DNA from: a virus
Taxonomy: Duplodnaviria > Heunggongvirae > Uroviricota > Caudoviricetes
Length of the DNA stretch: 13,846 nucleotides
Strand: one strand, 5' to 3'
Virus record (IMG/VR): IMGVR_UViG_2713896897_000012
Coordinates: 1-13,846 of that record
The notes beneath the pieces were generated by a model. That model made no database searches, had not been told where the DNA came from, and saw nothing but the letters and a program-made list of their open reading frames with translations. Shown piece by piece: positions 1 to 915 of the stretch (positions are counted from its first letter, which is position 1; every line of letters begins with the position of its first letter). Both the position numbers and the translations under genes were made by a program.

Positions 1-693
1 TTACTGTAGCCCAAGACGCTGTTTTGCCCTGCTATCTGACAGCAGTAACTCAAACACGCCTTTATCAAAGAGCTGTGATTTGCCCACGTCAGATAGCGAG
101 AAAGTCATAGTTTTGGCTTTTTGCCAGTGTAGCTTTTGCATTACAACTGGCGCACGGTTTCCGTTAGCGTCAACAACAAACACTCCTGCTACCACTGCCT
201 CAACTGGCTCATCCGTTCGGTTAATCGTTATTGTAATGTTGTAGTCGAAATCAACAGGAGTGCTCTTCTGCGCCTGTTTCAGGTTTTTACGCACTTTTTC
301 AGACAAATAAATTGCTGTGAGCTGCCCCTCCTCTTTTTTCGACGTCAGGAAAATATCGGCATCAGGCACGGCAACAACGGCTTTTTCAGAAAGCGCACCC
401 ACATCAACGGGCACGCGGAAATGCGCGAATGACTCAAATTTTTTCTGATAACACTCAACAAATTCGGCGTTCGTGAAAATGGTTGGGATCTGCGCCTTGA
501 TTTTAATCAGGCTGTCGGATTCTTTGCGGGAGTCTTCGTAGTCGTTACACGCCGCCACCTCAAAATCCAGGTCCGCAGCGGTGGCTTTGTGCTGCTCCGA
601 CTGAATGTCAGCGAAATCAACGGTAGTTGCGAGATCGACTTTACAGCCCGTCAGGGCCAGAGTGAGACATAAAGCGAGGTATTTTTTCATCAT
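1..693 (-). CDS. Secreted lipoprotein of unknown function (candidate prophage cargo gene or flanking host gene)
   Basis: 233-codon ORF 1..702; the N-terminus reads MKKYLALCLTLALTGC, i.e. a basic n-region, hydrophobic core and lipobox LTGC with Cys followed by Lys. The start is probably the ATG at 691-693 or 688-690 (GGA-rich sequence just upstream) and not the first ATG at 700-702. Separated from the tail-fibre gene by about 210 nt of non-coding DNA. No family recognised from memory. Confidence 0.75.
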   Translation of the reverse strand: MMKKYLALCLTLALTGCKVDLATTVDFADIQSEQHKATAADLDFEVAACNDYEDSRKESDSLIKIKAQIPTIFTNAEFVECYQKKFESFAHFRVPVDVGALSEKAVVAVPDADIFLTSKKEEGQLTAIYLSEKVRKNLKQAQKSTPVDFDYNITITINRTDEPVEAVVAGVFVVDANGNRAPVVMQKLHWQKAKTMTFSLSDVGKSQLFDKGVFELLLSDSRAKQRLGLQ

Positions 694-885
694 AACATCC
701 ATGCGTTAAATAGAGCGCCCAGCTTTATTCCAGCCGGATCGCGCATATCATGATCCAGTGCAAAATGATGTTTGAAAAAATATTTTTAGGAATTGCGCCC
801 GATATTGAGATTGATTTGCGAGGCTGATTCCAGATTCGAAACAACTTCGTTTACCGGACGAGAGGATCGGTGCACAGTGGAGCCT

Positions 886-915
886 CATAAAATTCCGGGT
901 GCGCACCGTTTTTTA
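886..915. terminator. Weak palindrome with flanking A/T runs immediately after the last tail-fibre stop; possible intrinsic terminator
   Basis: Perfect 10-nt palindrome GGTGCGCACC at 898-907, with a T6 run at 909-914 on the plus strand and AAAATT at 889-894. The stem is short (3-4 bp once a loop is allowed), so this is a weak call. Confidence 0.25.

Follow-up and report, generated by a model that had tools for sequence, protein, structure and literature searches.

A DUF7424 lipoprotein gene at the end of a Pam3/E217-like myovirus prophage: very probably a phage-borne moron, with a possible role in envelope-level exclusion

The stretch analysed here (hereafter "the window") comprises the 13,846 nucleotides (nt) of the viral record IMGVR_UViG_2713896897_000012, and its first 912 positions are the very end of a Pam3/E217-like myovirus prophage. 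This end carries, on the minus strand, a single gene for a lipoprotein of the Pfam family DUF7424, set apart from the adjoining tail-fibre genes by a non-coding spacer. Taken together, the gene and its upstream region very probably constitute a moron, i.e., a one-gene accessory cassette borne by the phage. The features of this cassette, in window coordinates, are the following:

1-690, minus strand: DUF7424 lipoprotein gene, 229 amino acids (aa), with a TAA stop at 1-3 and an ATG start at 688-690 (open reading frame and translation)
643-690, minus strand: signal peptide with lipobox L-T-G-C (codons 652-654 to 643-645), as read from the sequence
691-702, minus strand: upstream in-frame ATGs (MDVM) and a GGATG Shine-Dalgarno-like motif at 696-700, 5 nt from the ATG at 690
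703-912, minus strand: non-coding spacer of 210 nt carrying the cassette's upstream region, conserved in two E. coli relatives
718-738, minus strand: small 5'-leader hairpin (TCCGGCTGGAATAAAGCTGGG), terminator-like in a scan
750-778, minus strand: candidate sigma-70 promoter proposed from sequence, with -35 TTTTCA (773-778), a 17-nt spacer and -10 GATCAT (750-755)
868-908, no strand assigned: imperfect palindrome just past the fibre gene stop, with arms at 868-876 and 900-908

The minus-strand frame is open over positions 1-702 and has three in-frame ATGs on offer. The ATG at 688-690, which yields the 229-aa product MKKYL... (beginning MKKYLALCLTLALTGCK), is preferred because a GGATG motif stands 5 nt upstream, because homologues use the same start (they begin at MKK or MMKK), and because a public gene call agrees with it (the annotation of GCA_001514595.1 calls an identical 229-aa product). 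An exact-sequence look-up of the 233-aa form that would begin at the upstream start gave no match and that of the 229-aa form did, and positions 691-702 are probably 5' leader and not coding.

The predicted signal, MKKYLALCLTLA-LTGC, consists of a basic MKK, a hydrophobic YLALCLTLA and the lipobox LTGC, and follows the pattern used to recognize lipoproteins processed by signal peptidase II (SPase II), i.e., [LVI][ASTVI][GAS]C within the first ~35 residues, after a positively charged N-terminus and a hydrophobic stretch. The candidate for the lipidated residue is Cys16 (codon at 643-645), and the +2 residue is Lys17 (640-642). Under the enterobacterial +2 rule, Asp at this position keeps a lipoprotein in the inner membrane and other residues permit sorting to the outer membrane by the Lol system. 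Because Lys stands at +2, as in most family members, the window protein is predicted to be sorted to the outer membrane via Lol. The lipoprotein gene of about 230 aa, with a textbook signal and Lys at +2, that a preliminary description of the window had reported is thus borne out by this reading. The lipoprotein gene is a working gene under purifying selection: compared with two E. coli copies, the ratio of non-synonymous to synonymous substitution rates (dN/dS) is ~0.06 (dS 0.44-0.55, dN ~0.03). Its G+C content is 47.7%, compared with 45-47% for the adjoining fibre genes and 52.1% for the baseplate-to-sheath genes.

Database searches gave a clear family assignment. The Pfam DUF7424 profile (PF24199) matched at 128.2 bits against a cutoff of 27 (E = 4.5e-37; residues 19-217 on profile positions 2-191 of 196) and the PHROG collection yielded phrog_3832 (E = 4e-22), both entries being annotated as function unknown. 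In size, lipobox and three invariant cysteines, the window protein is a full member of DUF7424 / PHROG 3832. Apart from DUF7424, the Pfam scan at E ≤ 1 yielded only four unrelated sub-threshold matches, with no Lambda_Bor (PF06291), Cor, Llp or TraT among them; NCBIfam contributed only a signal-peptide-level match to VirB7, far under the cutoff; no family among the PADLOC defence-protein models matched at E ≤ 1; and a profile search of Protein Data Bank (PDB) sequences found nothing below E = 0.5. The preliminary description had not recognized the family and had remarked that the protein was larger than Cor, Llp and Bor, and the protein and profile searches agree, placing it in DUF7424 and in none of these three. 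Our literature searches on DUF7424, the source assembly, and phage lipoproteins and exclusion found no paper specific to DUF7424, a family which is without a characterized member or a solved structure.

A profile search across 1.8 billion representative sequences recovered 242 DUF7424 clusters (50% identity, E ≤ 0.001), the best 150 of which are mostly 205-240 aa long, and a lipobox-like motif, usually followed by Lys at +2, was present in most of the 156 DUF7424 proteins fetched. In an alignment of 127 sequences only three columns are invariant, namely the lipobox Cys16, C48 and C80, with E44, D53, S58, A89, F91, P94, P181 and S200 conserved in at least 90% of sequences. The window protein carries C16, C48, C80, E44, D53 and S58, i.e., the cysteine set and the E..C.D...S motif of the family. 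Named members come from Gamma- and Betaproteobacteria (Escherichia, Salmonella, Rahnella, Xenorhabdus, Frischella, Proteus, Succinivibrio, Pusillimonas and Paracandidimonas). A megablast of window positions 1-3400 against 50,697 phage records gave no match, and tblastn of the lipoprotein gave three matches only, all distant and all to Vibrio phage.

The AlphaFold model built from 127 sequences is a confident one (predicted local distance difference test, pLDDT, 95.4; predicted template modelling score, pTM, 0.90), compared with a pLDDT of 66.6 when 8 sequences were used. This model suggests the following organization: beyond the lipid anchor, the protein folds as a single alpha/beta domain of ~11 strands and 4 helices, in which a periplasmic disulfide between Cys48 and Cys80 likely locks the acidic loop EV..C.DYEDSRK.S. 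When compared with viral models (BFVD) using Foldseek, it matched only other DUF7424 proteins, which originate from Aeromonas, Serratia, Enterobacter and Vibrio phages. Given these matches and the empty PDB profile search, the DUF7424 fold has no close solved relative. Rare fusions, too few to support any conclusion, were also observed on metagenomic contigs, in which DUF7424 is joined to a PF04228 zinc-metallopeptidase or to cytochrome c (P0136, 449 aa; P0051, 419 aa); the peptidase fusion is without the usual PF04228 N-terminal anchor, as though DUF7424 had taken the anchor's place.

The boundary of the prophage could be fixed by comparing its integration sites. The window proteins compared were all identical to part of GCA_001514595.1 (L002), in which the lipoprotein gene is followed by pabB-yoaH-yoaC-yoaB-yoaA (the pabB-side flank is 85.6% identical to E. 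coli, the source of those gene names). Two E. coli relatives of the prophage carry a lipoprotein 93-94% identical to that of the window, likewise after the fibres, and the next host gene differs from one prophage to the other, being pabB in L002, acnA in L003 and uspF in STEC384 (L001). A hairpin immediately 3' of the stop codon in L002 (z = -3.5, with 0 of 200 shuffles folding as well) is conserved at all three prophage ends, and would be the terminator of the lipoprotein cassette, just beyond the window. The homology between the three loci spans the gene and this post-stop hairpin and is lost within some tens of bases beyond, hence the gene and its putative terminator are the last element inside the prophage. 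The pabB flank occurs throughout a set of 5426 complete E. coli genomes, of which only two have the lipoprotein gene, at another locus; the prophage type itself likewise occurs in only two of the 5426. That the gene might instead be the first host gene past the prophage end had been considered in the preliminary description, and its location at the extreme end of the prophage, 210 nt apart from the fibre operon, would be in line with this. This reading is almost certainly wrong, however, since the gene accompanies the prophage at three integration sites, lies within the tail operon in Salmonella relatives and is missing beside pabB in the 5426 E. coli genomes, and since the homology of the prophage ends runs through the hairpin and stops only after it. 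The host-gene ambiguity is thereby removed.

In all, about twenty gene contexts were examined, using the term moron in the Hendrix/Juhala sense. Salmonella prophages that share this structural type have a 74% identical copy between the tail chaperone and tape-measure genes, and the lipoprotein gene of Xenorhabdus vietnamensis lies there too. The chaperone and tape-measure genes adjoin each other in STEC384 as in the window phage, i.e., the arrangement expected of a moron insertion. The Salmonella insert opens right after a GGCCG....CGGCC hairpin, at the site that corresponds to the gap at 9681-9832 in the window, and closes with a second copy of this hairpin; with it comes an upstream stretch of ~100 nt that is homologous to the window spacer, including an A/T-rich block and GATCAT. 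As for a terminator of its own, a further moron characteristic, the post-stop hairpin is found at three prophage ends, and two terminator-like sites bound the Salmonella cassette.

More distant copies occupy other kinds of positions. A DUF7424 gene lies between icd and the integrase gene in an E. coli lambdoid prophage, between pgsA and the integrase gene in Salmonella, and within a TraG/TrwB-Fic-methylase island in Succinivibrio. Two further copies, one in a prophage of Paracandidimonas and one in a phage contig from a marine metagenome (its protein cluster contains a Pusillimonas sequence), stand directly downstream of repressor-like genes of the HTH_3 helix-turn-helix type, on the same strand and divergent from the early genes. 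A 160-kb Vibrio phage, classified in its record as Ackermannviridae, also has a copy, and this copy is a lipoprotein as well; such Ackermannviridae-type carriers are presumably virulent phages. The suggestion that the gene is accessory phage cargo is therefore upheld, as it is a cassette of one gene, accompanied by a conserved upstream region and a terminator-like hairpin of its own, and is found at varied positions in related and unrelated phages.

Several features of the spacer bear on how this cassette may be expressed. The distance to the fibre gene is 222 nt from the preferred ATG and 210 nt from the edge of the open frame, consistent with the ~210 nt of non-coding DNA reported earlier behind the fibre genes. 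The proximal ~100 nt of the spacer is partly conserved ahead of the Salmonella copy, although that copy is differently placed in its phage, and an Rfam search of the spacer matched no family. The candidate promoter is preceded by an A/T-rich block (779-790) which, together with GATCAT, is invariant in all four aligned cassettes; TTTTCA-17-GATCAT may thus be the lipoprotein gene's own weak promoter, independent of the late operon. The candidate -10 GATCAT happens to include a Dam site (GATC), invariant in the four cassettes including the differently located Salmonella one, and it would be pure speculation to propose a methylation-sensitive expression on this basis. The small leader hairpin (718-738) has a folding z-score of -1.2, which is not significant, and is conserved in the E. 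coli copies, not in Salmonella.

The palindrome with T-runs noted in the preliminary description does exist, with 9-nt arms that are complementary at 8 of 9 positions and 23 nt between them, and it is found in STEC384 and missing from the other E. coli relative. It folds only weakly, however, with z-scores of -1.4 (gene strand) and -1.8 (plus strand), and was not among the sites called by the terminator scan. A T-run (909-914) follows the stem on the plus strand only, the gene strand having an A-run ahead of the stem. We therefore rejected this palindrome as a canonical terminator of the fibre operon, on the basis of both orientation and z-score.

The adjacency of the lipoprotein gene to the fibre genes had implied a link between the two. 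The fibre genes in question are consecutive:

913-2247, minus strand: distal tail-fibre gene, 444 aa, outside the cassette (phrog_26622 tail fibre, E = 3e-39)
2257-3369, minus strand: proximal tail-fibre gene, 370 aa (phrog_26622, E = 2e-27)

The implied link is not supported by comparison with relatives. In the E. coli relatives, the lipoprotein is 93-94% identical where the fibres are only 67-73% identical (67-72% for the distal one), and in Salmonella the lipoprotein is still 74% identical where the C-terminal parts of the fibres are unrelated. Moreover, the position beside the fibres is only one of at least five positions seen. Because the fibres diverge while the lipoprotein is conserved, and because its position relative to the fibres varies, the target of the lipoprotein is probably not the fibre's receptor. 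Regarding the fibres themselves, the two genes share an N-terminal module (~120 aa, 48% identical) and differ elsewhere, and the distal fibre parts are the most divergent proteins among relatives that are otherwise 90-100% identical, which suggests that the receptor-binding parts of the fibres are exchanged as modules.

What, then, might this cassette do? A phage moron for an envelope lipoprotein is of a well-known kind, and DUF7424 is already catalogued, though uncharacterized, so known systems offer points of comparison. T5 Llp and phi80/N15 Cor are outer-membrane lipoproteins which inactivate FhuA and are encoded by single genes, Cor on temperate phages and Llp on a virulent phage. The window protein resembles them in being a phage-encoded, predicted outer-membrane lipoprotein expressed from a lone gene. 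Inactivation of the receptor by Cor is cited in PMC11436027. The preliminary description had remarked that phages frequently have lipoproteins of this sort just past the tail-fibre genes. Unlike Llp and Cor, to which it has no sequence relationship (no Pfam match), DUF7424 is ~3 times larger, and it neither keeps a fixed place with respect to the fibres nor co-varies with them. Lambda Bor and plasmid TraT, for their part, are serum-resistance lipoproteins, TraT (about 240 aa) also acting in surface exclusion. As with these two, the DUF7424 protein is an outer-membrane-type lipoprotein carried as mobile-element cargo at the periphery of the element, and TraT is of similar size; in contrast to them, it has no Pfam match to PF06291 or TraT, and is also found in Ackermannviridae-type isolate phages. 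Finally, the location downstream of a repressor-like helix-turn-helix gene in two betaproteobacterial contigs recalls lambda rexAB behind cI; rexAB and the P22 sie genes are exclusion genes which the prophage expresses. The Rex and Sie proteins are, however, inner-membrane or cytoplasmic, such that rexAB and P22 sie involve unrelated proteins in another compartment, and the window gene lies at the fibre end, not in the immunity region.

Of the functions considered, the one we tentatively favour as most likely is exclusion, at the level of the envelope, of incoming phages or other mobile elements, much as T5 Llp, phi80 Cor or F TraT work, although the protein is unrelated to these. The cassette would have a weak promoter of its own and be transcribed separately from the late operon, presumably including during lysogeny; the product would then be exported and lipidated through Sec and SPase II and reach the inner (periplasmic) face of the outer membrane. 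In the envelope of a lysogen or an infected cell it could then act by itself, binding a conserved envelope component, and not the specific receptor of its own phage's fibres, and so make entry harder for incoming phages or for other mobile elements. Exclusion is favoured because lytic-type phages carry DUF7424, which points to a gain for the phage while it infects and away from a host virulence trait, because prophage ends and sites behind repressor-like genes are classic positions for exclusion and conversion genes, and because conjugative or defence islands also carry the family. Other observations weigh against this proposal. The promoter scan (threshold of 9 matches out of 12) called no promoter, TTTTCA-17-GATCAT scoring 8 out of 12. 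Across the contexts no conserved partner gene that might indicate a target was found, and the ~367-aa downstream genes of two loci are unrelated; with no neighbour gene conserved, the lipoprotein most likely acts alone. Lastly, orphan copies with no phage genes nearby lie amid host genes, among them copies in Proteus, Rahnella and several Xenorhabdus species, a copy between gltB and gltD and a copy beside the nap operon, and these fit a general envelope function as well as they fit exclusion.

These orphans also speak for a lysogenic-conversion factor of benefit to the host, for example in serum or complement resistance, envelope-stress tolerance or adhesion, as for Bor and TraT: their retention in the chromosomes of Proteus, Rahnella, Xenorhabdus and others suggests a phage-independent benefit, and an outer-membrane-type lipoprotein at the moron positions of prophage ends is just what bor is. 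We nonetheless consider such a role unlikely, as Ackermannviridae-type isolate phages carry lipoprotein members and a lytic phage gains nothing from virulence traits, as Lambda_Bor and TraT had no Pfam match at E ≤ 1, and as other members belong to marine and gut metagenome bacteria, for which serum resistance is irrelevant. A periplasmic binder or inhibitor of an enzyme (peptidoglycan hydrolase or peptidase), which would either guard the wall from a tail lysin in the manner of T4 Spackle or modulate a host peptidase, is hinted at weakly by the fold and the fusions, and we hold it to be quite improbable. A role in lysis or in the virion, as an outer-membrane spanin subunit or an assembly factor, seems very improbable. 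Spanin outer-membrane subunits are indeed lipoproteins, and the gene does sit within the tail operon of the Salmonella and Xenorhabdus relatives, but at 229 aa the window protein is far bigger than Rz1-type subunits, its hydrophilic C-terminus lacks the hydrophobic segment of unimolecular spanins, and there is no adjacent or embedded partner reading frame and no lysis cassette nearby, i.e., none of these hallmarks of a spanin is present. Furthermore, closely related phages are without the gene at the tail-operon site, indicating that it is dispensable for tail assembly, and an exported lipoprotein cannot enter cytoplasmic virion assembly.

Extending the exclusion proposal to the family, one might speculate that DUF7424 represents a widespread, hitherto unrecognized class of lipoproteins which exclude at the envelope and have a fold of their own, acting on a conserved envelope component and distributed over many kinds of mobile element, including phages of the temperate myo- and lambdoid types, phages of the Ackermannviridae type, and the conjugative islands found in Gamma- and Betaproteobacteria. 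This generalization as a whole is on balance unlikely, but a conserved target would explain both the uncoupling from the fibres and the hopping between positions and phage types. The interest thus lies in the DUF7424 family as a whole more than in the window copy. The envelope lipoproteins of phages, Llp, Cor and Bor among them, are, to our knowledge, few in number and of small size, and each serves a single receptor or trait. The DUF7424 family is larger, with 242 clusters, a confident predicted structure, no functional annotation, and one member targeted by E. coli CRISPR (clustered regularly interspaced short palindromic repeats) spacers. If its members do block entry at a conserved step, this would add a broad-spectrum exclusion mechanism, with a bearing on the host range of therapeutic phages and on prophage-mediated immunity; if exclusion proves false, the gene would still be a clean, mobile one-gene moron, apt for asking what phages gain from their cargo.

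The targeted member is that of the icd prophage, to which short exact matches (L015:10059-10090) were found in the CRISPR arrays of 267 of the 5426 E. coli genomes, the gene variant itself being present in none of the 5426. The spacer examined (32 nt; NZ_AP019189.1, 1109461-1109494) belongs to an iap-adjacent array, and its protospacer is preceded by AAG, a canonical type I-E protospacer adjacent motif. A second spacer (NZ_LR536431.1) matches positions 367-399 of the same gene.

With regard to the orphan copies, short fragments of phage tube or chaperone genes lie just upstream of otherwise orphan DUF7424 genes in three Xenorhabdus loci (L007, L011 and L012), which suggests that these are decayed prophages in which the lipoprotein gene was retained. 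Within the plasmid collection PLSDB, only NZ_OL790811.1 and NZ_OL790812.1 matched; both are Proteus mirabilis sequences of ~4.08 Mb and evidently chromosomes, the match in NZ_OL790811.1 being flanked by folD and arsRB.

Among the neighbouring genes of the window, the sole other intergenic gap (9681-9832, 153 nt) separates a 147-aa chaperone-like gene from the tape-measure gene. This gap is conserved like coding sequence, with a stop near 9700, and in both the window phage and STEC384 the GGCCG....CGGCC hairpin and a T-run lie just ahead of the tape-measure ribosome-binding site; it probably represents a G/GT-like extension of the tail chaperone by frameshifting. The earlier statement that the lipoprotein gene is the only one outside the translationally coupled structural operon is thus essentially right. 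The baseplate wedge gene (Phage_Wedge1/DUF2612; 3366-4048) is in two open reading frames (3680-4048 and 3366-3689), a split caused by a 1-nt deletion at about 3797 relative to the intact 227-aa gene of STEC384, and which may reflect either a defective prophage or a draft-assembly error. One E. coli genome (NZ_LR778150.1) holds a CRISPR-annotated 39-nt match (97%) to positions 3881-3919 of this wedge gene.

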